Shown here: positions 8,228 to 59,353 of the stretch, one piece after another
Position numbering within the stretch: the stretch's first letter is position 1
Layout: each line of letters begins with the position of its first letter
Assembly: GCA_016201825.1 (NCBI GenBank)
Contig: JACQCD010000085.1
Location: forward strand, 1-62,895
Direction: 5' to 3'
Origin: Nitrospirota bacterium
GTDB taxonomy: Bacteria > Nitrospirota > Nitrospiria > 2-01-FULL-66-17
DNA: 62,895 bases
Program-made: the position numbers and the translations under genes
Notes under the pieces: model-generated
The model's input: the letters and a program-made list of their open reading frames with translations, nothing else
What the model was told of the DNA's origin: nothing
Database searches by the model: none

Positions 8228-9528
8228 TTCGGCGTCTCTATACGGCGGCCCTTGCCGTCGGTCTGGTCGTGACCGCCCCGAGCTATCTCGCCAAAGCGAT
8301 ACGACGCGGGACGGGCCTGGCCCTGCGCGAGCGGCTGGGACGCCTCCCCGACCATGTCGTCGCGGCGGTGCGCGACCGGCGTGCGGTCTGGGTGCACGCC
8401 GTGTCGGTGGGCGAGGTGACCGCGGCGGTGCCGCTGCTCCGCGAGATCAAAATTCGGTATCCCACGGTGTGTCTGTTCGTTACCACGGTGACCGCGACCG
8501 GGCGCCAGACGGTGATCGAGCGCGTGCCCCAGGCCGACGCCGTCGCCTACTTCCCGCTCGATTTCCCCCGCGTGGTGGATCGACTGTTGGACACGATCAA
8601 CCCGCGCCTGTTTCTCTGCGTGGAAACCGAGCTCTGGCCGAACTTCCTCTCCGCGCTGGCGCGGCGGGGCATCCCGGCCTTTCTGGTAAACGGACGGTTG
8701 AACGCCCGATCGGCGCGACGGTACCGTTGGGCGCGCCGGCTCTTCCAGCCGGTGTTAGCGGGCTTCTATGGGTTTGCCGTCCAGACCACCGCGGATGCCC
8801 AGCGGCTGGCCGGGATCGGCGCGGACCCCGGTCGGATCGTCATCACCGGTAATTTGAAATTCGACCAACCGGCGGATGATGCCGAGACGGGAGATCCAGC
8901 TCGGCGGGTCGGTTTGGGGTTGGCCGCCGACGAACTCCTCTGGGTCGCGGGAAGCACGCGTCAAGGGGAAGAGGAGCCGCTCCTCGAGGCGTACCGTCGG
9001 CTCAGGGGCCGAGGGGTCCGAGTCGTGCTGCTCATCGCTCCCCGGCACCTTGACCGTCTCGACAAGATCGAGGCGATGGTGCGGGCGCGTGGGTTCGACC
9101 CGGTGCGCCGATCGGCGTGTCCGGCGGGGCAGCCGAGTCCCCGCGGGGAGGGCGGCCCCGCCCGGGTCATCGTCCTCGACACGATCGGTGAGTTGGCCGC
9201 GCTCTACGGCGAGGCGGCGCTCGCGTTCGTCGGGGGGACGCTCGTGCCGGTGGGCGGGCACAATCTTCTCGAACCGGCGGCGCGCGGCAAGGCCGTGGTG
9301 TTCGGGCCCCACACGTACAAGTGCGAGGAAATTGCCGCGGCAGTGCTTGAATCGGGCGCCGGTGTGCGGGTCGATTCGGTCGATGCGCTGGAAGAGCAGG
9401 TGGGGCGGTTGTTGGCGGATCCGGTGCTGCGCGAGCGGATGGGCCGCCGCGGGCGTGAGATGGTGGCGAGAAATCAGGGCGCGGTGGAGCGGACGTTGGC
9501 GTTGCTCCATCCGTGGTTGGTGGAATGA
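8224..9528 (+). CDS. waaA: Kdo transferase
   Basis: WVHAVSVGE, ETELWPN, TGNLKFD, GSTR, GGHNLLEPA; GTG 8224. Confidence 0.96.
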   Translation: MIRRLYTAALAVGLVVTAPSYLAKAIRRGTGLALRERLGRLPDHVVAAVRDRRAVWVHAVSVGEVTAAVPLLREIKIRYPTVCLFVTTVTATGRQTVIERVPQADAVAYFPLDFPRVVDRLLDTINPRLFLCVETELWPNFLSALARRGIPAFLVNGRLNARSARRYRWARRLFQPVLAGFYGFAVQTTADAQRLAGIGADPGRIVITGNLKFDQPADDAETGDPARRVGLGLAADELLWVAGSTRQGEEEPLLEAYRRLRGRGVRVVLLIAPRHLDRLDKIEAMVRARGFDPVRRSACPAGQPSPRGEGGPARVIVLDTIGELAALYGEAALAFVGGTLVPVGGHNLLEPAARGKAVVFGPHTYKCEEIAAAVLESGAGVRVDSVDALEEQVGRLLADPVLRERMGRRGREMVARNQGAVERTLALLHPWLVE

Positions 9529-46470: not shown

Positions 46471-48303
46471 TTGACCCTATCGCACTGGTTGTGCCCGAGT
46501 AGGCCGGTGACAGAGTCCAAGTACACCATCATCTGGTACTTCTTGAGGGCCTATAAACCCCTTTACGGCGGGGTGCTGGTCGTCACGGTTCTTGGCGCGC
46601 TTTTGGAGAGCGTGAACCTCGCGGCGTTTTTCCCGGTGTTTCAATCGCTCCTGAATCCGTCGTCGAGCGGAGACGGTGGAAAAATCCTCGGTATTGCGAG
46701 AGGAGTTGGCCGGTTGCTGCCGTTTCAGGACCCCGTCATCGTCGCATCGATAGTATTGGTTGCCGTGATGCTCATGAAATCCGCGGTGGCTCTTCTGCGG
46801 GAAGGCTTGGTGGCGAAGGCGAGTGGACGGGTTCTCTATGACGTCAAGAACCGTCTCTTGGGAACGTATGCCGCGTCGTCCTATCAATTTTTCTTGGACA
46901 ACAAGCAGGGAGCCTTGGTCTACAATTTCATCGCTGCGCCACACAAGGTCTCCCTCCTTCTCTTGAAGGTTCCGCAATTACTGGCGGATCTGTTTAAGGT
47001 GGTTGCCATTGCTGCGGTCCTGCTCGTCGTGCTTCCGGTTGCCGCCTTGGTTCTGGCGATCGCAGCGGGGGTCTATTACTTGGGCACCCATTATGTGTCG
47101 ACACGGGTGTCGTATCACACCGGAAAGGCCAGGGCGACTGCGAGCGCGGAGCAGGCCACCATCGCCAATGAATTTCTGAATGGGATCAGGCAGATCATGG
47201 CGGTGGGGACGCGGCGATTCTGGCTCGCTCGGTTCGAGCAAGAGAACCGGACCTTTTGCCAGCTCTACGTCAAAGACCTCGTGTGGTTAGCGATGCCGAA
47301 GTACTTGATGGAGACGACGGCGGTGTTGCTCCTGCTCGGGTTGATGTTGGTCGCCAAAGGATCCGGGTCTGGCGACCTCGCTGCCCACCTGCCGGTCATG
47401 GGGGTATTCGCCATGGCGGTCTTCCAACTCTTGCCCTCGCTCACATCATTCGGTCGGCAGAGAATGGAGATGATGGGGGCGCTGGCCGATTCGGAGCGTG
47501 TCTATCTCGCGTTGACCGAAACCACGCCTCGCCCGAAGGAAGGTGTACGGGTTCTCGATACGTTTCGGAACGCCATCGTCTTCGAACATGTGTCGTTCGC
47601 CCATCAGGGAAGAGAACCGCTTTTGAAACAGGTGAACCTTCGGTTCGAAAAAGGCCAGGCGATCGCAATCTGCGGGCCATCCGGAGCGGGGAAGACGACC
47701 CTGGTCAACCTGCTCCTCGGTTTGTTTGAGCCGAGCGAAGGCCGGATCACGGTTGATGGCGTGCCCCTGGCCGACTATACGACCGAGTCATGGCTGAGTA
47801 AGATCGGACTCGTCAGTCAAGAGCCGTTCATTTTTCACTCGACGATCGCCGACAACATTCTGTTCGGACGACACGGCGACTACACGAGAGATGACTTGAT
47901 GCAGGCCGCGATGACCGCGAACGCCCACGCGTTCATCGAGGAACTTCCCGACGGCTACGACACCATCGTCGGGGAACGCGGTATGAAGTTGTCGGGAGGG
48001 CAGCAGCAGCGCATTGCCATCGCCAGAGCCTTACTCGGTCGTCCGGAGATCCTGATCTTTGACGAGGCCACGAGCTCTCTCGACACGATTTCGGAACGCC
48101 TTGTTCAGGACGCCATCGAAGCGATCTCGAAAGACCATACGACCATCGTCATCGCCCATCGGTTATCCACCATCGCCAGCGCACAGAAAATCGTCGTGCT
48201 GGAGACCGGCCGGGTGGTTGAGGAAGGTTGCCATGGCGAGTTGTTGGAGATCGGCGGACAGTACTCCCGCATGATCGCCGCCGGTCTGGGCTCGACGCAT
48301 TGA
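46471..48303 (+). CDS. MsbA/PglK/Wzk-like ABC exporter (glycan flippase candidate)
   Basis: TMD plus GPSGAGKTT, LSGGQQQRIAIARA, DEATSSLD. Confidence 0.9.
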   Translation: MTLSHWLCPSRPVTESKYTIIWYFLRAYKPLYGGVLVVTVLGALLESVNLAAFFPVFQSLLNPSSSGDGGKILGIARGVGRLLPFQDPVIVASIVLVAVMLMKSAVALLREGLVAKASGRVLYDVKNRLLGTYAASSYQFFLDNKQGALVYNFIAAPHKVSLLLLKVPQLLADLFKVVAIAAVLLVVLPVAALVLAIAAGVYYLGTHYVSTRVSYHTGKARATASAEQATIANEFLNGIRQIMAVGTRRFWLARFEQENRTFCQLYVKDLVWLAMPKYLMETTAVLLLLGLMLVAKGSGSGDLAAHLPVMGVFAMAVFQLLPSLTSFGRQRMEMMGALADSERVYLALTETTPRPKEGVRVLDTFRNAIVFEHVSFAHQGREPLLKQVNLRFEKGQAIAICGPSGAGKTTLVNLLLGLFEPSEGRITVDGVPLADYTTESWLSKIGLVSQEPFIFHSTIADNILFGRHGDYTRDDLMQAAMTANAHAFIEELPDGYDTIVGERGMKLSGGQQQRIAIARALLGRPEILIFDEATSSLDTISERLVQDAIEAISKDHTTIVIAHRLSTIASAQKIVVLETGRVVEEGCHGELLEIGGQYSRMIAAGLGSTH

Positions 48304-49997
48304 TGCCGATCGACCTGCAAGCTGGCGTGGTCGTGCCTCCAATCGGTTCCCTCCATGCATCCGGGCAGCGGCACGCCCCTGCCTCGGAGGAGTCGGTCCA
48401 TCCGTCGTTTTCCCGCCTGGCAGAGGCCCTCGGTACCGCCCGACGGCTCTCTCCCGGCCTCCCGGTCCTCGGGATACAGTGGCTCCATCTGATGCATCCC
48501 TTGCATCCCGTCCAAGAAGAGCTTCTTCGGATCGCTGACAGGACGACCAAGGATCCTGGGACACTGGCGCGAGGTGGAGGATGGTTAAAACGAATCAGCG
48601 AATTGGCAGGGTTGGTCTGGCGGCAGGGCCGCTGTGTGGCGTATGCCCTCTACTTGACGAGTGTGTTGGGCAGGCTCCGTTGGCGCATGCGCAAAGCGGT
48701 TGCACAGCTCAGGAGTCAGCACTTCGACGTGGTGGCGAAGACGTGGTGTTTCGGTGTCGTCTCGGAAGAACGGGATTTTTATTACGGGGACCTGCAGCGC
48801 CGAATGGCCGAGCGTGGTCGACGGATGCTGTTGCTCGCCGGTGACGGTGCCGGGTCCGACTGGCGCGTTTTTTCGCGCACCCATGTGTCTGTCGACGAGC
48901 CGTGCAAACTACCTGAATGGGCCCTGGTTCCGCTCACGGCGCCGCTCTGCATGGCGTTGAAGCAGCTTGCGGGATCGATCAGGCTGCGCGGCATCGGAGG
49001 CCGCTCATCGAGTGTTCTTCTTCGGCAGATTGGGGCGCGCGCGAGTCGTGACTGTCTCCTCCCGAGCACGACACGCAACGGACTCTTCTTCTGGATCGGG
49101 CAAACCGCCGTTCGGCGGTGGCGCCCGCGCGTGTTCGTCACGCTCTACGAGGGGCATGGCTGGGAAAAGTGCGCGTGGTGGGGCGCGAAATCGGCCGACC
49201 CGACGTGCGTCACGACCGGCTACCAGCACACCGTGCTCTTTCCTGAATCAAGGTCATTAACGCGGCCGGTGATCGAAGGGGCGCAACGATCGGTGCCCGA
49301 TCTGGTTTTGTCGTCGGGGACGATTCCTTCGGACATGATGCGGCCCGGGCACGCGGGACAGGGGACACGGTTCATTCGATTCGGGAGTTTCCGGCACAAG
49401 GGTTACGCGGTCGACCGCCCGAGCGACGCGGGTCTGAAGACCGTCTTGGTGACGCCCGAAGGCATCGCGTCGGAGACTAAGGCCCTGTTTGCCTTTGCGT
49501 ATCAGTGCGCCCTGAGAATTCCCGCGTACACGTTTATTCTCAGGGCTCATCCTGCGATCCCCATGACGGCGGCTCTGAAGCTATCGGCCATCGACCTCGC
49601 CGGCGCGCCGAATCTTGTGGTGTCCGAACAGGCCAGTATCGAGGACGATTTCAAGCGGTCTTCCGTCCTGATGTACCGAGGTTCCTCGTCTGTCCTTTAC
49701 GCGATTTTGAATGGTCTCTTTCCGCTCAACATCCATCTTGCCCCGCTATTCGACACGGATCCGTTGTATCAACTGGAGTGCTGGCGGAAAAGCTGTTCCA
49801 CGCCCGAAGGGTTTGCCGATGCGCTCACGCAGCACGAAACGAGGACGAGGGAAGACCTCTCGACGGAGTGGAGGGCGGCCCTGCGCTATGTGAGCGAGTA
49901 CACCGTGCCGGTCACGGTCGACGGCATCGACCAGTTCATCCGAGCGACCGGTCTCCAAGGCGCAGGGGCATCTCGATTGTCGCCGGGGGACCCATGA
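48303..49997 (+). CDS. Uncharacterised polysaccharide-biosynthesis protein (possible glycosyltransferase)
   Basis: ATG overlaps the upstream TGA; TLYEGHGWE, GYQH, LRAHP, YRGSSS motifs. Confidence 0.6.
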   Translation: MPIDLQAGVVVPPIGSLHASGQRHAPASEESVHPSFSRLAEALGTARRLSPGLPVLGIQWLHLMHPLHPVQEELLRIADRTTKDPGTLARGGGWLKRISELAGLVWRQGRCVAYALYLTSVLGRLRWRMRKAVAQLRSQHFDVVAKTWCFGVVSEERDFYYGDLQRRMAERGRRMLLLAGDGAGSDWRVFSRTHVSVDEPCKLPEWALVPLTAPLCMALKQLAGSIRLRGIGGRSSSVLLRQIGARASRDCLLPSTTRNGLFFWIGQTAVRRWRPRVFVTLYEGHGWEKCAWWGAKSADPTCVTTGYQHTVLFPESRSLTRPVIEGAQRSVPDLVLSSGTIPSDMMRPGHAGQGTRFIRFGSFRHKGYAVDRPSDAGLKTVLVTPEGIASETKALFAFAYQCALRIPAYTFILRAHPAIPMTAALKLSAIDLAGAPNLVVSEQASIEDDFKRSSVLMYRGSSSVLYAILNGLFPLNIHLAPLFDTDPLYQLECWRKSCSTPEGFADALTQHETRTREDLSTEWRAALRYVSEYTVPVTVDGIDQFIRATGLQGAGASRLSPGDP

Positions 49998-51816: not shown

Positions 51817-52236
51817 ATGAACTGCGTGATCTTCGGCTACGGATACATGGGAAGGATTCGGCACCGGGTCCTGCGTGAATGCCCCGAGATTAAAGAGATC
51901 ATCATCGTGGATCCCGAAGCCGATTCGCCCAAGGCCGGTCTCGACGGGGTGTGGCTGCCGCGAGGCGCGGACGTTCCGTGGGATCGTATCGATGCGGCCT
52001 TCGTGTGCACGCTCCTGATCTTTGACCCGAACGGCCTTCACCGCGTCGATCTAAAGCCGGGGACGTTCCGGTCTCACTTGCATCTGAACATCGTCCCCGG
52101 AAACGACATCTTGAAAATTAAACCTGACGTGCAATCAGGGTTTCCTTTGTGTACAGCGGCAGGCTTGGCCACCTCGACGCCTATTCAGAAACGAAGTTTG
52201 GTGCATATACCGCCAGCTGAGGGGAGAGGCTCGTGA
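51817..52236 (+). pseudogene. Truncated Gfo/Idh/MocA oxidoreductase (65 codons) fused to an unrelated tail
   Basis: GYGYMG Rossmann start to DAAFVCT (ends 52011), then non-homologous, lower-GC sequence. Confidence 0.7.
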
Positions 52237-52696
52237 AGATTACTGATGTTGAGGTGGTGCGTGCCCCGTATCATTGGGGCTATGGAAGGCGGCAGATATC
52301 AGATAGAGTCTGACAAGTCGCCGTACCTTACTCCCATTCGGCTCCTTATCGGCACGTGGCTATGGTCTTCGATTCTCGGACATGCATAGGGCGCTTTGCA
52401 TCGAGAATAGCAGCAGTTTTCTAGCTCGCGAATACAGGCTTCAACCCAAGTTACTAGGTCCAGCGTTGCATGAGGTAGGAATAATGAATCTCAGCTCACG
52501 GGATCAACGTTTCTCTTGCTAAGTATTGTCAACGCGCAGCGGAGAGATATTGGGGGCGCAAGAGGTTAAATCGTAGCCCAAAGGGTGCCAGTGGTCCTGA
52601 TCCAAGTCGATCACTCATGGCCAAGCAGGATAGTGATCAACAGTCATCTCGTAATGGCAGTGCCCATCGTGTTCCGTATTTACAATCAAAAAATGG

Positions 52697-53587
52697 ATGT
52701 CTTTCATGGTTAAAAAGATACTTGAAGTCGGGTATGGCTCGGTCGCTAAAGTGAAAATTGGTGACCGACTTCCATTGACATTCATCGGTGGGCCCTGCGC
52801 AATCGAAAGCCGCGACCATGCCTTCAAAATGGCGGAGTTAATCGGTGAAATCTGCCGTCGTGTTGGTATCTCGTGGATTTATAAGTCTTGCTATGACAAG
52901 GATTGCCGATCCTCACCGGACAGCTTCCACGGCCTTGGGGTGGATTTCGGTTTACGCGTTCTTGCCGACATACGGGAGGAATTTGGGATTCCAGTGGTCT
53001 CAGATTTCTCTGAGCCATCCCGGGGGCCTGCGACTGGGGAAGTCTGCGATATGGTGCAGGTGCCGGCTTATCTGTGCAGGCAGACGTCCATGCTCCGAGC
53101 CGCTGCGCTGACGAATCGGCCTGTTCATCTGAAAAAAGGCCAATTTATGAGCCCTTGGAACATGAAGAACTCGGTTCGGAAAATTGAGGCAAACGGCAAT
53201 CATCAAGTTCTTTTGGCTGACCGGGGAACCTTTATGGGCTACAACATGCTGGTGAACGACATGCGATGCTTCCCCATCATGGCAGAGACGGGTTACCCCG
53301 TCTGTTTCGATGCGACGCACTCGATTCAGCTACCGACCTCCATGGGCAACATCTCGGGTGGGCAGCGAGAGTTTATTCCCCATCTGGTTCGAGCGGCTGC
53401 GGGCTGTGGCATCAACGCCCTGTTCATGGAGGTGCATGACGATCCCGATAATGCGATGTCGGATGCCAACACGGTGCTGGATATCCAGTATCTGGAAAAC
53501 ATTCTCGGCCAAGCCAAGGCCGTACACGAGATGCGCCTTGAACTGCTCGAGAAATATGGAGAAGACAATGTCCACCCAGAAAAATGA
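52697..53587 (+). CDS. kdsA: KDO8P synthase family, metal-dependent type, with variant substrate motif
   Basis: GGPCAIES, YDKDCRSS (canonical KANRS), QVPAYLCRQT, KKGQF, DATHSIQ, FMEVH, SDA. Confidence 0.88.
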   Translation: MSFMVKKILEVGYGSVAKVKIGDRLPLTFIGGPCAIESRDHAFKMAELIGEICRRVGISWIYKSCYDKDCRSSPDSFHGLGVDFGLRVLADIREEFGIPVVSDFSEPSRGPATGEVCDMVQVPAYLCRQTSMLRAAALTNRPVHLKKGQFMSPWNMKNSVRKIEANGNHQVLLADRGTFMGYNMLVNDMRCFPIMAETGYPVCFDATHSIQLPTSMGNISGGQREFIPHLVRAAAGCGINALFMEVHDDPDNAMSDANTVLDIQYLENILGQAKAVHEMRLELLEKYGEDNVHPEK

Positions 53588-53993
53588 TGCCATGCTGGTA
53601 AGCGAAGTCATGATGTCGTTAGATCGGATTCCGGTGATCGGCGAGACCGTTATTCTGAAAGAGGCCCTTGAAGAGATGGGTCGATCACGGCTAGGCATTG
53701 CCTGTATTGTGGATGTCGACACCAAGCTATTGGGCATTCTCACGGATGGTGATATACGGCGGAATTTACTCAAGGTCCAAAAACCATTCTCCGCATTTTT
53801 TGTGGACGATGCGCTCGATCATGCCATTCGATCACCTCTGACGATACAGCCGAACGACACCCTGGTGCATGCGATTGGCCTGATGGGCCAAAAACAGATC
53901 TGGGATCTGCCAGTCGTGGATGATCAGGGAACCCTGGTGGGGCTGCTGCACTTACACCCTGCGGTTCAGGCGTTACTCGGAATTCGAGAGTGA
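53568..53993 (+). CDS. CBS-pair protein (like the KdsD/KpsF C-terminal domain, no SIS)
   Basis: GILTDGDIRR, LPVVDD.G.LVGLLHLH. Confidence 0.85.
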   Translation: MSTQKNDAMLVSEVMMSLDRIPVIGETVILKEALEEMGRSRLGIACIVDVDTKLLGILTDGDIRRNLLKVQKPFSAFFVDDALDHAIRSPLTIQPNDTLVHAIGLMGQKQIWDLPVVDDQGTLVGLLHLHPAVQALLGIRE

Positions 53994-54940
53994 TGTACTC
54001 TGGACAAACAGCAATCGATTATCTTGGGACTGAAGTCAGTAAGGACGACTCGGGCGAGTCCTCTCACTGGCGCAAATATCACTCCTCGTTTCGATTTACG
54101 GGGGATGGGTTTGAAGGCTTGCAGGGCTTCGGTGTGAGTGAGAAGCCTTACCGAGGGTTGCGCTTGGGGTTGCACCGCCTGTTACAACGTAGGTTTCGCC
54201 GGATGGGAGCAGAATTTCCCCAATTCACGGCGATTGACAGGCTAGCTGATAAAATAATGTCCCGGCAGGGGCGCGCCTACGATCTGGATGTGCTTCGGCA
54301 GTCGCTCACGCTTGCCTTTTTGAGAGATCGGATTCCTTACGCTATTTCGCCTCAGGCAACGGTTTGCGTGATTGGGGATGGGTTTGCGTCGATGACCGCC
54401 CTGTTGCTCGCCAGCCGTTCGGCAGGTCTGGTTGTGCTGATCAACCTCACGAAAACCTTGCTTGTTGATCTCTGGCATCTCAAACTTTGGATGGGAGAAG
54501 AGGCCTTTGCATCCCGTGTTGATCTTGTCACGGATGAAGAGGGCCTTTCACGTGCGCTCGCGACAACGGCCGATATTGACGGGGGGGGGCGAGTGGTGGC
54601 GATCCAGGCCTCGCGTCATGAGTTGCTGAAGCGATGTCCGGTGGATCTTGTCTTGAACATCGTATCGATGCAGGAAATGGACCCCCCGGTCATTGCGGCC
54701 TATTTCGATGACATGCGCGCCATTGCATCCCAACGGCAACTGGTTTTCTATTGCTGCAATCGCGAGGAGAAGACACTGCCAGACGGCACGGTGACTTGTT
54801 TTGCAGCGTATCCCTGGCACGAAGGCGACCAGATTCTCGTGGATGAGCTTTGCTTATGGCACCAGTTCTACTATGTATTGAGGCCGTTATTTTTCAGACC
54901 CTATGACGGTCCAATTCGACATCGGCTGGTGACTCTCTAA
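53990..54940 (+). CDS. Putative sugar O-methyltransferase
   Basis: VIGDGFA, NIVSMQEM, FYCCNREEK; in-frame G9 tract at 54581-54589. Confidence 0.65.
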   Translation: MMYSGQTAIDYLGTEVSKDDSGESSHWRKYHSSFRFTGDGFEGLQGFGVSEKPYRGLRLGLHRLLQRRFRRMGAEFPQFTAIDRLADKIMSRQGRAYDLDVLRQSLTLAFLRDRIPYAISPQATVCVIGDGFASMTALLLASRSAGLVVLINLTKTLLVDLWHLKLWMGEEAFASRVDLVTDEEGLSRALATTADIDGGGRVVAIQASRHELLKRCPVDLVLNIVSMQEMDPPVIAAYFDDMRAIASQRQLVFYCCNREEKTLPDGTVTCFAAYPWHEGDQILVDELCLWHQFYYVLRPLFFRPYDGPIRHRLVTL

Positions 54941-55138
54941 TGAGGAAGAAATCTAAGTGTTTCACTAATTGACGAGCCTAGTTGCTATCAGCAGGAGATA
55001 AGTAAATGCGGGCATTGAACAACTTTTTAGCTATGAGGATTACAATCCTCATAGCGGATTGTAAGATGTACAGCAGCGCAGGGTATTGTAAGTCCATTCT
55101 ATAGCCATAACCTCTACAAATATGCGGAGTAAGTGTCG

Positions 55139-55921
55139 ATGAAGATTGTCGAACAACGAAAAGTATTGAAAGAGAAATTGCAAAGGCGCGAGCGCCTGTT
55201 CGCGGGCTGGGTGTCATACGCTCAGCCTTCAATTACCGAAACCTTCGCACGCGCAGGTTTCGATTTCATCGCGATTGATATGGAGCACTCCACTATCTCG
55301 CTGGAACAGGCGCAGCGTATTATCGCGGCAAGCCAAAGCGAGGGGGTGCCTTGCCTGCCACGCCCCGTCTCCCATTCGAACGATTGGTTCAAACCTCTGC
55401 TGGAATCGGGTGCGGATGGTCTTTTGGTACAGATGGTAAATACACCGGAAGAGATCGAAGCCATTATTGGCCACCTGAAATACCCTTCAGTCGGACGCAG
55501 AAGTTATGGCGTGAATCGCGCCCAAGCCTATGGTTTTGACTTCGATAGCTACATACAGAACTGGAACGAGACCTCGACCTTTATTATCCAGGTCGAGTCG
55601 ATTCGGGCGGTCGAGAATATTGAGAAGCTTTTAGCCTTTGATGAAGTCGATGGAGTGATGATTGGGCCCTACGACATCTCCGGGTCGCTCGGCGTACCGG
55701 GCCAGACCACACATCCTCTGGTGATTGAGGCTTCACGCAAGGTGATCGCAGCCTGCGAACGCTTCGGCAAGAGCTGCGGAACACAGGTGGCCGATGCATC
55801 TCCAGACAGTGTTCAGGCCTTGTTTGACTTGGGCCATACCTTCGCCATTTTGGGCTCCGATCTGTTTGTGCTGTGGAAGTGGGCAGAACAGATGCAGGGC
55901 TTGATCAAATCCATGCGTTAA
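55139..55921 (+). CDS. HpcH/HpaI class II aldolase
   Basis: FDFIAIDMEHS, QVESIRAVEN, MIGPYDISGSLG, LGSD. Confidence 0.92.
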   Translation: MKIVEQRKVLKEKLQRRERLFAGWVSYAQPSITETFARAGFDFIAIDMEHSTISLEQAQRIIAASQSEGVPCLPRPVSHSNDWFKPLLESGADGLLVQMVNTPEEIEAIIGHLKYPSVGRRSYGVNRAQAYGFDFDSYIQNWNETSTFIIQVESIRAVENIEKLLAFDEVDGVMIGPYDISGSLGVPGQTTHPLVIEASRKVIAACERFGKSCGTQVADASPDSVQALFDLGHTFAILGSDLFVLWKWAEQMQGLIKSMR

Positions 55922-55939
55922 TACTTTTGGGACTGGTTT

Positions 55940-56722
55940 GTGAATTCCTATCTGAATGAATTGTTCAATTTAGAAGGCAAGGTCGCCGTAGTGATTGGCG
56001 CGGGTGGTCACTTGTGCAGTGAGATGGCTCGGGGCTTCGCCCGGGCGGGCTGTGCAGTGGCTGTGCTCGACCTAAGGCTTGAAAAGGCGAAAGCCGTTGA
56101 GGATGAGTTGAGGGCCGCAGGCTTTGATCGTGTCATGTCGCTTGCCATTGATGTTGCCAAAAAACAGGAGCACCTCGATGCGCTGGCGCAGGTCCTCTCA
56201 ACCTTTGGCCAGGTCGATATTTTGGTGAATGGCGCCGGCATCAACGGCCCCACGCCTTTTCTGGAGCTGACCCTTGAGGAGTGGTACGCCATTCTTGACT
56301 CTCAGCTCACAGGCGCCTTTCTCGGCTGCCAGGTCTTTGGCGGTTACATGGTAGAGTGGGGCCGTGGGTCCATTATCAACATCTCATCGGCCTCGGCCGG
56401 CCCACCGCTTTCCAAAGCCTTCACCTACTCGGTTGCCAAGGCCGGCATCAAGAACCTGACGCAGAACCTTGGCCGTGAGTGGGGAACGAAGGGCGTTCGG
56501 GTCAATGCGTTGCGTCCCGGTTTCTTTCCAACTGAGTGGAATCGCAAGAATTTCATCACCCCCGAGCGCGAGGCCGCTATTCTTGGGCATACCCCGATGG
56601 CACGGTATGGAGAGCCAAGTGAACTGATTGGTGCCACTTTGTGGCTGGCATCCGATGCAGCCGGTTTTGTCACCGGTGCCGAGATTGCTGTTGATGGCGG
56701 ATTTTCCTGTATGACCATCTAA
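55940..56722 (+). CDS. SDR oxidoreductase (KduD/gluconate-5-dehydrogenase-like)
   Basis: VNGAGIN, YSVAK, NALRPGFF, VDGG. Confidence 0.88.
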   Translation: MNSYLNELFNLEGKVAVVIGAGGHLCSEMARGFARAGCAVAVLDLRLEKAKAVEDELRAAGFDRVMSLAIDVAKKQEHLDALAQVLSTFGQVDILVNGAGINGPTPFLELTLEEWYAILDSQLTGAFLGCQVFGGYMVEWGRGSIINISSASAGPPLSKAFTYSVAKAGIKNLTQNLGREWGTKGVRVNALRPGFFPTEWNRKNFITPEREAAILGHTPMARYGEPSELIGATLWLASDAAGFVTGAEIAVDGGFSCMTI

Positions 56723-56774
56723 GGTCTGTGAACATTTTCTGATAGGGCCTTGTCACCCATTCTGGAATAGAAAC

Positions 56775-57524
56775 ATGCAGCGAAAAACAGTAGTCATCAC
56801 GGGTGGAAACCGTGGGATCGGCCTCAGCATTACGGAAGCTTTTATCAATGCTGGCTATTTTGTGATCGTCGGTGCGCGTCATGAGATGGGGTTGAGTAGC
56901 CGGTTTGGTGATCAAGTCAGCTTTATTTCTGCGGATGTTCGAGACGAAGCAGCTCATCGCCGATTGGTGGATGTCGCAGTCAAAAAGACGGGAACCCTGA
57001 ATGTGTACATCAATAATGCAGGCTTCTCCGAATGGAGGCCGATTGAGAAGATTGATGAAAAGTTTTTTGATGATCTGATCGGAACCAATCTGAAGGGAGC
57101 TTTCTGGGGGTGTAAGGCCGCCTCAAGTGCCATGCAGGATGGGGGGTGCATCATCAATATCTCAAGCATTGCCGGCAAACGTGGGAGTGCTAACAACTCG
57201 GCGTATTGCGCGTCCAAGTTTGGGGTGAATGGGCTGACTCAGGCGCTTGCTAAAGAAGTCGGGCCTCGTGGAATTCGTGTGAATGCCCTCTGCCCGGTAT
57301 TGATTCCTACGGATGGGCTGATCGACGCATTAAAGAGTCCTTTTTCCCCGGCCAAGGGGGACCCAGAGGGATTTATCTCCAAGTTTATAGCGGACAATGC
57401 CGCACTAAAGCGGCTTCCAACCGGAGAGGAGGTGGCTGCGATGGGTCTGTTTTTGGCCTCTGAGTCAGCATCTGCGATGACCGGGCAATGCATTAATGTG
57501 GACTGCGGTGTCTTTCCTCAGTGA
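56775..57524 (+). CDS. SDR oxidoreductase
   Basis: TGGNRGIG, NNAG, YCASK. Confidence 0.9.
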   Translation: MQRKTVVITGGNRGIGLSITEAFINAGYFVIVGARHEMGLSSRFGDQVSFISADVRDEAAHRRLVDVAVKKTGTLNVYINNAGFSEWRPIEKIDEKFFDDLIGTNLKGAFWGCKAASSAMQDGGCIINISSIAGKRGSANNSAYCASKFGVNGLTQALAKEVGPRGIRVNALCPVLIPTDGLIDALKSPFSPAKGDPEGFISKFIADNAALKRLPTGEEVAAMGLFLASESASAMTGQCINVDCGVFPQ

Positions 57525-57537
57525 TGAGTTCACGCAA

Positions 57538-58302
57538 ATGAAGATCGTTGCCGTAATTCCGGCACACCTCGCGTCAGTCAGGTTTCCTCGGAAAATCCTG
57601 TTTCCCTTTCATGGGCTACCCATGATTGAGCATGTGCGTCGGCGTACGTTGCTCTCTGGTGTTGTATCAGATGTGTATGTAGCGACCTGCGATGAGGAGA
57701 TCGCCGAAGCAGTCCGCGGATTTGGTGGAAAGGTCATCATGACGGCAAATACGCACACCAATGGCACCAGCCGGGTTACTGAGGCGGTAAAGGACGTTGA
57801 CTGCACCCATGTGATGCTGCTGCAGGGCGATGAACCGCTGTTGTTGCCTCGTCACCTGGATATTTTAGTGAAAACGATTTCCTCTGAACCCGGGGGCGAC
57901 GCCTGGAATGCCACCGGACCTATCGAGAACGAGGAGGAACTGGACCGTCATTCCTTTGTGAAGTGTGCCATTTCGTCGTCTGGGCGCATTCTGTATTGTT
58001 TCCGTCGAACGCCCTGCTACAGTGCCTTCGATGTGCAGCAGTCTTTCGTGAGGAAGATCCTTGGGATCATTGTCTATCGCAAGGACTTCTTGCTGCATCT
58101 CACGGCGCTTTCTGCCTCACCGATCGAGCAGGCTGAGTTTATTGAGCAAATGCGCATCATTGATAACGGCTACAGCTTGCGCTCTATCCCCGTCAGTCCG
58201 AGCCTGCCCTCGGTAAATGAGCCTGACGAGGCAGAGATCGTGCTAGATTACATTCGACACAATGCTGAACAACGGGCGCTGCTGGAACGGATTTCGAGTT
58301 GA
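57538..58302 (+). CDS. kdsB: KdsB-family ulosonate cytidylyltransferase
   Basis: VIPAHLASVRFPRK, NGTSRV, LQGDEPL, EQMR..DNG, SVNEPDE. Confidence 0.85.
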   Translation: MKIVAVIPAHLASVRFPRKILFPFHGLPMIEHVRRRTLLSGVVSDVYVATCDEEIAEAVRGFGGKVIMTANTHTNGTSRVTEAVKDVDCTHVMLLQGDEPLLLPRHLDILVKTISSEPGGDAWNATGPIENEEELDRHSFVKCAISSSGRILYCFRRTPCYSAFDVQQSFVRKILGIIVYRKDFLLHLTALSASPIEQAEFIEQMRIIDNGYSLRSIPVSPSLPSVNEPDEAEIVLDYIRHNAEQRALLERISS

Positions 58303-58410
58303 GCAGGATTAAAAGGGTTGTTCTGGTTGTGAGGCGGGATTCGGTTTGAACGAAGAACAATATCGATCGGTCTGCGAGGCCTGCGATCGCCTGCTGCTGG
58401 CGCCGGATTC

Positions 58411-59353
58411 GATGATCGTTCACGCCGCGTGTTACACGAAGCGGGGTTTGAAGTCCGGGAACATACGTCGGGCGCGCGGCTTCGGCGCCAAGAAATGATG
58501 GCGGCGCTGCGCGAAGCGGATACCGTGCTCGCCGGAGTCAAATCGTATGACACGGAACTCCTGGCCGCGATACCGCGGCTCCGCTGTATCAGTCGCTGCG
58601 GCATCGGGAAGAATTCGATTGCCCTCTCTGCAACACAGCGGCTGGGCGTCTCGGTGCTGACCACCGTCGACGAGATCGTCGAACCCGTGGCGCAGATGAC
58701 CATCGCAATGATCCTGGCTCTTGCCCGTCATTTCCCTGAGCACGGTCGGGACTTCCAAGCCGGTGTCTGGAAGAAACACACCGGCCATCTGCTATCGGAG
58801 TGGACGGTTGGCCTCGTCGGGTTTGGGCGTATCGGCCGCATGGTGGAAGGATATCTGCGCGTCTTCGGACCGCGCGTGCTGGTCGCAGACCCCAACCTCC
58901 AGGCCGACCGCATACCCCCCGGCGTCGAACGAGTGGATCTTGCCACCCTGTTGGCCAGAGCCGATCTGGTGTCCCTGCACGCGGCTCGGCCGGCGCACGA
59001 AAGCGTGTTGCTCGGACGACGCGAGATCTCCGCGATGAAGGCAGGCAGTCGGTTGGTCAATACCGAAAGAGGATACCTGATTGATGAGTCGGGGCTCGTT
59101 GAGGCCTTGCAGTCGGGACATCTTGCCGGCGCCGCATTAGACGTCTTCGACAGACGTCTTCGACACCGAGCCGTATCGGGGGCCCCTGGCCGCGTTCCCT
59201 CAGGTCTTGTGCACGCCACATGTAGCGACGTTGACCAAGGCGTCACGGGTCGCGATGGAGCTTCGCTGTGCCTCGAACGTGGTCGAATGGTTCCAGGGGA
59301 GAAGCCGTGCATCCAATGCTGTGAGCGGAAAACGGGAGACGACGCATGCCTAG
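58411..59353 (+). pseudogene. D-2-hydroxyacid (phosphoglycerate-type) dehydrogenase, 5'-truncated and frameshifted by a 13-bp duplication
   Basis: GLVGFGRIG, VNTERG, ALDVF; removing the duplication restores DTEPYRGPL...CTPHVATLT...TAG 59353; no start codon in frame upstream. Confidence 0.85.
59139..59164 (+). repeat. 13-bp tandem duplication AGACGTCTTCGAC x2
   Basis: Direct read. Confidence 0.95.

Follow-up and report, generated by a model that had tools for sequence, protein, structure and literature searches.

A variant KdsA paralog with an obligatory CBS partner in a Nitrospirota genome: a widespread cassette and candidate KdsD-independent route to an activated ulosonic acid

[quoted passage not shown] The contig JACQCD010000085.1 of a Nitrospirota bacterium (GenBank assembly GCA_016201825.1, a 2.8-Mb metagenome-assembled genome, MAG, 89% complete), which was analysed over its whole length of 62,895 nucleotides and is referred to as the window, raises the question of what an enzyme that breaks this rule may be for. 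It encodes a KdsA paralog, called here KdsA*, in which the loop reads KDCRS; this gene and the six that follow it, all closely spaced and on the same strand, code in addition for a stand-alone pair of CBS domains, a putative sugar O-methyltransferase, an HpcH-type aldolase (HpcH*), two short-chain dehydrogenases/reductases (SDR1 and SDR2) and a cytidylyltransferase of the KdsB family (KdsB*) (Table 1). The asterisk marks the cassette-type enzymes, including the phosphatase KdsC* of some relatives, and the aldolase with SDR1 and SDR2 is referred to as the trio. A previous inspection of this DNA without database searches (the sequence-only reading) had described the seven open reading frames (ORFs) and proposed that they make a non-Kdo ulosonic acid; profile matches and ORFs agreed with every item that it had observed in them. 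The locus is a real, intact copy of a widespread and apparently undescribed variant of the Kdo pathway, and neither the cassette nor a KDCRS enzyme was described in the literature that we searched. The explanation that we favour, with moderate confidence, is a horizontally spreading cassette of two modules, namely a synthase that would be independent of the arabinose-5-phosphate (A5P) isomerase KdsD, and a set of enzymes that would remodel its product before activation with cytidine monophosphate (CMP).

KdsA* scores above the cut-off of two curated models of Kdo-8-phosphate (Kdo8P) synthase (NF003543, 332.1 bits against 242; TIGR01362, 316.3 against 314, that is, barely) and below that of a third (NF009109, 248.6 against 457). 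The motifs of the phosphoenolpyruvate (PEP) site, KS..DK, KKGQF and (E/D)RG, are retained, as are the metal ligands listed by the sequence-only reading, Cys34, His208, Glu245 and Asp256, which correspond to C11, H185, E222 and D233 in the alignment to the Aquifex aeolicus enzyme (1FWN). The KANRS motif expected of a Kdo8P synthase is lacking, and the KDCRS found in its stead proved to be the mark of a whole group, the D-C pair being present in all the 172 distinct members of the clade. The DRG in place of ERG, to which attention had also been drawn, is indeed present but is not diagnostic, since Asp is found there in 7% of canonical enzymes as well.

Comparison of the 172 distinct KdsA* sequences with 15 canonical enzymes revealed 14 invariant switches (S43C, A47D, N48C, R56H, H83S, F103Y, L129M, A130S, D133N, V137S, S157F, G191T, G192S and N236T, in Aquifex numbering), all in or near the loops for the aldose phosphate and several of them in loops L2, which carries KANRS, and L7, in which LPGG has become LPTS. 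According to a modelling study of the Neisseria enzyme, the Asn and Arg of KANRS and the Asp of DxH touch the A5P-derived part of intermediate analogues, and loop L7 is required for A5P binding (PMC6650799). KDCRS is no chance variant. The only deviation from it seen in the clade, in a sequence that is not among the 172, is the KDGRS of a Caenispirillum bisanense MAG (L055), where Gly takes the place of the second new Cys.

KdsA* belongs to a discrete and isolated clade, characterized by these invariant substitutions. In a library of 1.84 billion representatives at 50% identity, the clade has one full-length representative, which scored 578 bits, and the next protein scored 292 bits at 51% identity; in the best 150 representatives, which were considered for the motif, A-N was found in 92, S-N in one and D-C in four, all of this clade; the motif could not be assessed in the other 53, among which were many fragments. 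At the 90% identity level, more than 120 clusters are 84–94% identical to KdsA*. A relative is encoded in 146 species genomes; in the best 80, which were examined, the protein is 70–95% identical, and the carriers include Leptospira noguchii, Devosia, Aquirufa, Tabrizicola, Legionella, SAR11, SAR116, SAR324 and Prochlorococcus. The clade spans Proteobacteria, Bacteroidota, Leptospira, Nitrospirota, Desulfobacterota, SAR324, SAR11, SAR116 and Prochlorococcus. A search of 72,556 plasmids, 50,697 phage records and 5,426 E. coli genomes gave no gene of this type.

The same genome also has a housekeeping enzyme. On contig C71 a canonical KdsA with KANRTS (430 bits against the KdsA model), to which KdsA* is 47.7% identical, is encoded in a kdsB-kdsA-kdsD-kdsC group, with a full-length kdsD and with pyrG nearby. 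KdsA* is not, then, the only KdsA of its organism, and its earlier description as a dedicated second paralog with a rewritten aldose-phosphate site is borne out by this second copy and by the invariant switches. The coexistence is common: when the KdsA proteins of 70 carrier genomes were separated by their score against the KdsA model (364–444 bits for canonical KdsA, with one weaker second copy at 308, versus 319–347 for KdsA*), both kinds were found together in 54.

The supposition that the synthase travels with its own cytidylyltransferase in an acquired block of lower GC content, inserted in a glycan locus, also held. The GC fraction of the block is 0.528, versus 0.651 for positions 1–40000 of the window and 0.636 for the housekeeping kdsA, and the bounds of the block were set by blastn against loci from other phyla, the similar copies being those of Gammaproteobacteria, Methylobacter, Syntrophales and Thermodesulfovibrionia. 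Because the window also encodes WaaA (8323–8868), a Wzy-like protein, a family 2 glycosyltransferase (GT2) and an ABC exporter, the cassette lies in a locus for lipopolysaccharide (LPS) or an O-antigen-type glycan, with genes for the LPS core as neighbours.

The neighbourhoods of the KDCRS-type homologues, whose survey had been suggested, disclosed the architecture of the system. Among 80 loci that were retrieved, the CBS gene follows KdsA* in all the 79 in which the contig permits evaluation, and the two matches overlap in 62 of them; in the window, the CBS gene starts at an ATG (53568) that is preceded by GGAG and overlaps the end of KdsA* by 20 nt. The protein lacks the isomerase domain, as had been noted: its match to the KdsD/KpsF model TIGR00393 reaches 72 bits versus a cut-off of 203.7 and covers the CBS part only, so that of the SIS domain and CBS pair of a KdsD/KpsF protein only the pair is present. 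Downstream of it the cassette is modular. Of 58 loci that extend 6 kb or more downstream, 37 have HpcH, SDR1, SDR2 and KdsB* in this fixed order, and the cassette genes co-vary in identity; four loci have only a KdsB* of about 60% identity, and the remainder have neither nearby. The methyltransferase gene between CBS and HpcH is an optional insert, present in 19 of the 58 loci and missing from the Methylobacter and Syntrophales copies.

Some of the loci without the trio are cassettes of the type KdsA*-CBS-KdsB-KdsC. In others the aldolase is merely distant, as in the genomes G016, G005 and G003, where it lies 16–28 kb from an apparently solitary KdsA*-CBS pair. No HpcH* was found, however, in the complete chromosomes G006 and G007, or in G011. 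The existence of genomes free of HpcH* and of the KdsA*-CBS-KdsB-KdsC cassettes shows that the trio is not needed for the function of KdsA*, and the KdsA* pocket is the same with and without it. In an Acetobacteraceae MAG (locus L145, G097:C20:4000-12000), a canonical kdsA-kdsB-kdsD group directly adjoins a KdsA*-CBS-KdsB-KdsC cassette on one strand and within 7 kb, so the latter is a separate second set. The variant cassettes contain inserted genes for FkbM and class I methyltransferases, PhyH-like dioxygenases, a hexapeptide acyltransferase and an MBOAT protein, and no aminotransferase was seen in those examined; these tailoring genes point to a polyhydroxy sugar that is being modified. In the cassette of Leptospira noguchii serovar Panama CZ214 (L030:14335-15720), an insertion sequence with an rve integrase separates SDR1 from SDR2 and cuts short a PhyH-like dioxygenase gene, which is intact in the related Leptospiraceae cassette L041.

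The most instructive carriers are those in which the Kdo pathway is lacking. Among 41 Devosia genomes, 37 have no KdsA of any kind, and the other four have KdsA* only, one of them in two copies; similarly, seven of eight genomes in the Prochlorococcus genus to which carrier G008 belongs have no KdsA, and G008 has KdsA* only. No WaaA was found in the genomes tested of Devosia and of this Prochlorococcus genus, nor any KdsD in those tested of Devosia. Since KdsA (in 37 of the 41 genomes), KdsD and WaaA are lacking, the genus Devosia appears to be devoid of a canonical Kdo-LPS inner core. No full-length KdsD/KpsF was detected in the carriers of Devosia and Prochlorococcus, or in carriers G016 and G019, the matches being to the cassette CBS protein and to other CBS proteins. 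An A5P isomerase that could serve as a partner is accordingly present in the genome of the window, which has KdsD, and not in these carriers. KdsA*-CBS is independent of KdsD, KdsA and WaaA.

What the cassette brings along in such hosts is a phosphatase. Proteins of the KdsC family above the TIGR01670 cut-off are encoded by G016, by G008 and by three Devosia carriers (the one other Devosia carrier is a MAG), and by none of six Devosia and four Prochlorococcus non-carriers; in Devosia the gene comes immediately behind KdsB*, and in Prochlorococcus it precedes KdsA* by two genes. In Devosia sp. UYZn731, KdsA*-CBS-HpcH-SDR1-SDR2-KdsB*-KdsC* form a series of seven tightly packed genes with unrelated flanks, and within Devosia HpcH* is restricted to the four KdsA* carriers. 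The cassette, therefore, supplies synthase, phosphatase and cytidylyltransferase and never an isomerase, so that the aldose phosphate should either be a central metabolite or be made inside KdsA*. There are ten further carrier genomes with KdsA* only.

Two adjacent genes, U261 and U265, each coding for a protein of about 260 amino acids, are found ahead of KdsA* or within the cassette at 21 of the 80 loci (for instance L004:8426-10005), and a decayed remnant of U265 is found in the window (Table 1). They have no Pfam or NCBIfam match and contain invariant His-rich motifs (SLEHTHPP in U261; ERGY, YVHGN and a C-terminal FHG in U265). AlphaFold2 (AF2) models of both are all-beta and two-domain, with a mean confidence (pLDDT) of about 90, and have no fold match in the PDB (TM-score below 0.3). 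They were considered for the role of the missing isomerase and rejected as a general solution, because the genes are absent from the Devosia and Prochlorococcus cassettes.

Among the enzymes downstream of the CBS protein, HpcH* matches PF03328 with 101.5 bits and is far below the equivalog cut-offs of HpaI, GarL and YfaU; since the four catalytic residues of YfaU (H49, R74, E153 and D179) are conserved, it is predicted to be a competent pyruvate aldolase. Both SDRs have the Gly-rich cofactor motif, N(N/G)AG and YxxxK of classical SDRs. SDR1 ends beta2 with an Asp that is shared by all of 46 homologues, a signature of NAD, and the nearest families are the D-mannonate and gluconate-5 oxidoreductases, which act adjacent to the terminal carbon of sugar acids. 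In SDR2 the motif is TGGN(R/K)GIG and the corresponding residue is an Arg, invariant in 41 of 41 homologues, a signature of NADP. KdsB* matches CTP_transf_3, is 30% identical to the housekeeping KdsB of contig C71 and remains under all the KdsB cut-offs (NF003952, 189.9 versus 193 bits; NF009905, 202.5 versus 255; TIGR00466, 118.7 versus 155.2). In contrast, the KdsB proteins of some KdsA*-CBS-KdsB-KdsC cassettes exceed the subfamily cut-off (235–255 versus 193 bits), that of L082 exceeding also TIGR00466; the KdsB* of trio cassettes is farther from canonical KdsB than most trio-less ones, though not all, L027 scoring 187.5. The methyltransferase has no Pfam match. A sequence search of the PDB gave no close solved relative for HpcH* and SDR1, and none below E = 1e-35 for SDR2.

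From this gene content we infer the following order of steps, role of the CBS protein, substrate and product. In the first module, which is most likely a synthase module independent of KdsD, KdsA* and the translationally coupled CBS protein would act as a PEP- and metal-dependent ulosonate-8-phosphate synthase on a sugar phosphate already present in the cell. The CBS pair would be a remnant of KdsD and most likely a regulatory subunit of the first committed step, only the CBS half of KdsD having survived because that step is now performed by KdsA*. A KdsC-type phosphatase, the housekeeping one in this organism and a cassette-borne one in Kdo-less hosts, would then dephosphorylate the product. 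In the second module, aldolase and SDRs probably remodel the free acid, with an NAD-dependent oxidation by SDR1, a carbon–carbon step by HpcH* and an NADP-dependent reduction by SDR2; remodelling of the dephosphorylated acid is the simplest reading, because the genes for oxidation, aldol chemistry and reduction lie between those of the synthase and of the cytidylyltransferase. The aldolase could lengthen or branch the chain by adding pyruvate to the carbonyl that SDR1 forms, or it could epimerise C4 by retro-aldol and aldol steps. In the cassette of the window the sugar would also be O-methylated, and KdsB* would finally couple it to CMP for the surrounding LPS or O-antigen-type glycan.

As to the product of KdsA*, an octulosonate other than Kdo8P, made for example from ribose-5-phosphate, is the candidate that we would name first, at well below even odds; Kdo8P made from A5P comes only slightly behind it, Kdo8P made by a built-in bypass is unlikely, and a product of other chain length at least equally so. 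That the final product of this window is something other than Kdo, given the trio and the methyltransferase, is on the other hand quite likely, and in this respect the sequence-only reading stands.

Several observations weigh against our explanation. KdsA* passes two equivalog models with all its PEP and metal residues in place, and A5P could possibly come from an unrelated or promiscuous isomerase in the carriers without KdsD. The trio-less cassettes pair KdsA* with a near-canonical KdsB and KdsC, for which reason KdsA* may simply make Kdo8P. Moreover, WaaA is encoded, and yet KdsA* is the only KdsA, in three single-cell genomes of SAR116 and in one deltaproteobacterial MAG of 5.2 Mb; this may be due to assembly gaps, which are conceivable because another SAR116 genome has both kinds of KdsA and one single-cell genome has kdsD at the start of a contig, or KdsA* may be able to supply the Kdo of LPS. 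If it does feed LPS, its independence of KdsD would imply an isomerase-free route to Kdo8P, for instance from ribulose-5-phosphate. The equivalog scores, the intact catalytic residues, the near-canonical partners and the WaaA-bearing genomes would all be accounted for by an ordinary additional supply of Kdo, in which KdsA* uses A5P, KdsB* makes CMP-Kdo for an O-antigen or capsule, much as KpsF and KpsU supply Kdo for the group 2 capsules of E. coli, and trio and methyltransferase serve another sugar of the locus. We regard this as unlikely. The A5P-contacting Asn and its neighbours are invariantly replaced in the 172 sequences, whereas the scorable representatives outside the clade keep KANRS but for a single S-N; the cassette works in hosts without KdsD; KdsB* is below every KdsB cut-off; and the trio is inserted between CBS and KdsB* in a fixed order with co-varying identities.

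The sequence-only reading had instead placed the trio upstream, as the builders of an unusual aldose phosphate that KdsA* would condense with PEP. An altered pocket would suit an unusual aldose, and all the carriers without KdsD (the four Devosia, Prochlorococcus, G016 and G019) do have the trio; this association is, however, weak and not independent, because the trio is in any case present in some 64% of all the cassettes. The same KdsA* pocket is found beside CBS in the HpcH*-free genomes and in the KdsA*-CBS-KdsB-KdsC cassettes, which goes against this part of the earlier proposal. Furthermore, a pyruvate aldolase yields a 2-keto acid rather than an aldehyde, and the order is less likely because the cassette contains nothing, neither a kinase nor a carboxylate reductase, to turn such an acid into an aldose phosphate. 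We would give the upstream order a slightly smaller chance than an ordinary Kdo supply, and a smaller one still to the co-travelling of two unrelated pathways, one in which the acid from KdsA*-CBS is activated elsewhere and one in which HpcH-SDR-SDR-KdsB* independently uses pyruvate and an aldose to form another CMP-ulosonic acid. Such a separation would explain why KdsA*-CBS is found apart from the aldolase module, and why the modules are 16–28 kb apart in some genomes, but in the Kdo-less Devosia the aldolase module occurs only in KdsA* carriers, and there the seven genes overlap in one operon that has only one gene for a cytidylyltransferase and one for a phosphatase.

The remodelling of a KdsA* product before CMP activation, which we prefer to these alternatives, can be compared with several known systems. 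With the canonical CMP-Kdo pathway (KdsD, KdsA, KdsC and KdsB) and with KpsF/KpsU, the cassette shares the families of the synthase, the cytidylyltransferase and, in self-contained copies, the phosphatase, as well as the PEP and metal sites and a CBS pair of the KdsD/KpsF type. It differs in its lack of the SIS domain, in the rewriting of KANRS and of 12 further positions, in having the CBS pair as an obligatory protein of its own, in the additional aldolase and pair of SDRs, and in working without KdsD or WaaA. In the Kdo8N pathway of Shewanella, KdnB oxidises C8 of Kdo to an aldehyde, which KdnA transaminates. This is a precedent for oxidising free Kdo ahead of CMP activation, although those enzymes are a metal-dependent alcohol dehydrogenase and an aminotransferase, and the cassette families are different. 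The pathway of Bacteroides thetaiotaomicron to 2-keto-3-deoxynononic acid (Kdn), with Kdn-9-phosphate synthase, a KdsC-family Kdn-9-phosphate phosphatase and CMP-Kdn synthetase, likewise draws directly on a central sugar phosphate without an isomerase of its own, and then employs a phosphatase of the KdsC family and CMP activation; its synthase, however, is of the NeuB rather than the KdsA family, and it has no aldolase/SDR trio. The class II aldolases of 2-keto-3-deoxy sugar acids (YfaU, HpaI and GarL) share with HpcH* the fold and the four catalytic residues, but they are catabolic, while HpcH*, about 30% identical to them, is fixed in a biosynthetic CMP-sugar operon.

A more specific, and on the whole improbable, form of our explanation would combine an isomerase-bypassing KdsA*-CBS, in which ribulose-5-phosphate is isomerised in the active site by an acid–base set of Cys43, Asp47 and Cys48 to give Kdo8P, or ribose-5-phosphate gives an epimeric octulosonate, with an allosteric role of the CBS protein and with the addition of pyruvate to the SDR1-made carbonyl on the C8 acid, leading to an ulosonic acid of about 11 carbons or a branched one. 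Were it true, the CBS pair would have no known predecessor as a separate allosteric subunit in the DAHP/KDO8P synthase superfamily, and the product would be a higher-carbon or branched ulosonic acid without a reported counterpart in bacterial glycans. More generally, the cassette points to octulosonate synthesis without an isomerase, and the conservation of the KdsA* clade across phyla, including Kdo-less lineages, points to an activated acidic sugar on abundant environmental bacteria and on relatives of some pathogens. Such a sugar would matter for recognition by phages and grazers in the ocean, for serotyping and for glyco-engineering. To our knowledge, no glycan structure with a sugar of this kind has been published for the cultured carriers (L. 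noguchii serovar Panama, Devosia sp. UYZn731, Aquirufa, Tabrizicola and Anianabacter); among them, the Devosia isolates offer a cultured, Kdo-free background for direct identification of the product.

Table 1. Features of the cassette and its upstream edge, in positions of the window
Feature	Position	Strand	Basis
Decayed U265 remnant (intact gene, 265 aa)	52391..52710	+	two stops and one frameshift; tblastn with L004:9211-10005, 57–65% identity in two frames
KdsA*, metal-type KDO8P-synthase paralog, 296 aa	52697..53587	+	PF00793 (DAHP_synth_1), NF003543, TIGR01362
KDCRS motif, loop L2, KdsA* residues 68–72	52898..52912	+	alignment to Aquifex 1FWN
Stand-alone CBS pair, KdsD/KpsF C-terminal type, 141 aa	53568..53993	+	PF00571; TIGR00393 positions 157–268 only
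NanM-like putative sugar O-methyltransferase	53990..54940	+	TIGR04371, 42.2 bits versus cut-off of 44
HpcH*, HpcH/HpaI class II pyruvate aldolase	55133..55921	+	PF03328
SDR1, NAD-type classical SDR	55940..56722	+	NF006132, 245 bits versus cut-off of 281; beta2 Asp44
SDR2, NADP-type classical SDR, likely reductase	56775..57524	+	TGGNRGIG motif, Arg35
KdsB*, divergent KdsB-family cytidylyltransferase	57538..58302	+	PF02348
Acquired cassette, full extent	52409..58418	.	70–86% DNA identity to copies in other phyla; 53% GC

An alternative start at 52706 is possible for KdsA* and would give a protein of 293 amino acids. Upstream of the cassette, an ORF of 139 amino acids with a Rossmann-like N-terminus and no family match (51817–52236) ends where the GC content drops, and may be what is left of a gene cut short when the cassette inserted; farther upstream there is a 589-amino-acid ORF without family match (48228–49997). 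Just past the cassette, and outside its conserved part, the frame of a D-2-hydroxyacid dehydrogenase gene is shifted by a tandem duplication of the 13-bp sequence AGACGTCTTCGAC (59139–59164). Elsewhere in the same genome (G000:C97:1505-5474), a third KdsB-like cytidylyltransferase gene, whose product is 45% identical to KdsB*, stands between a GT4 gene ahead of it and genes for two B12-binding radical SAM enzymes and a GT2 behind it, and neither KdsA* nor HpcH is encoded alongside; this cluster looks like another variant ulosonic-acid module of the same organism.

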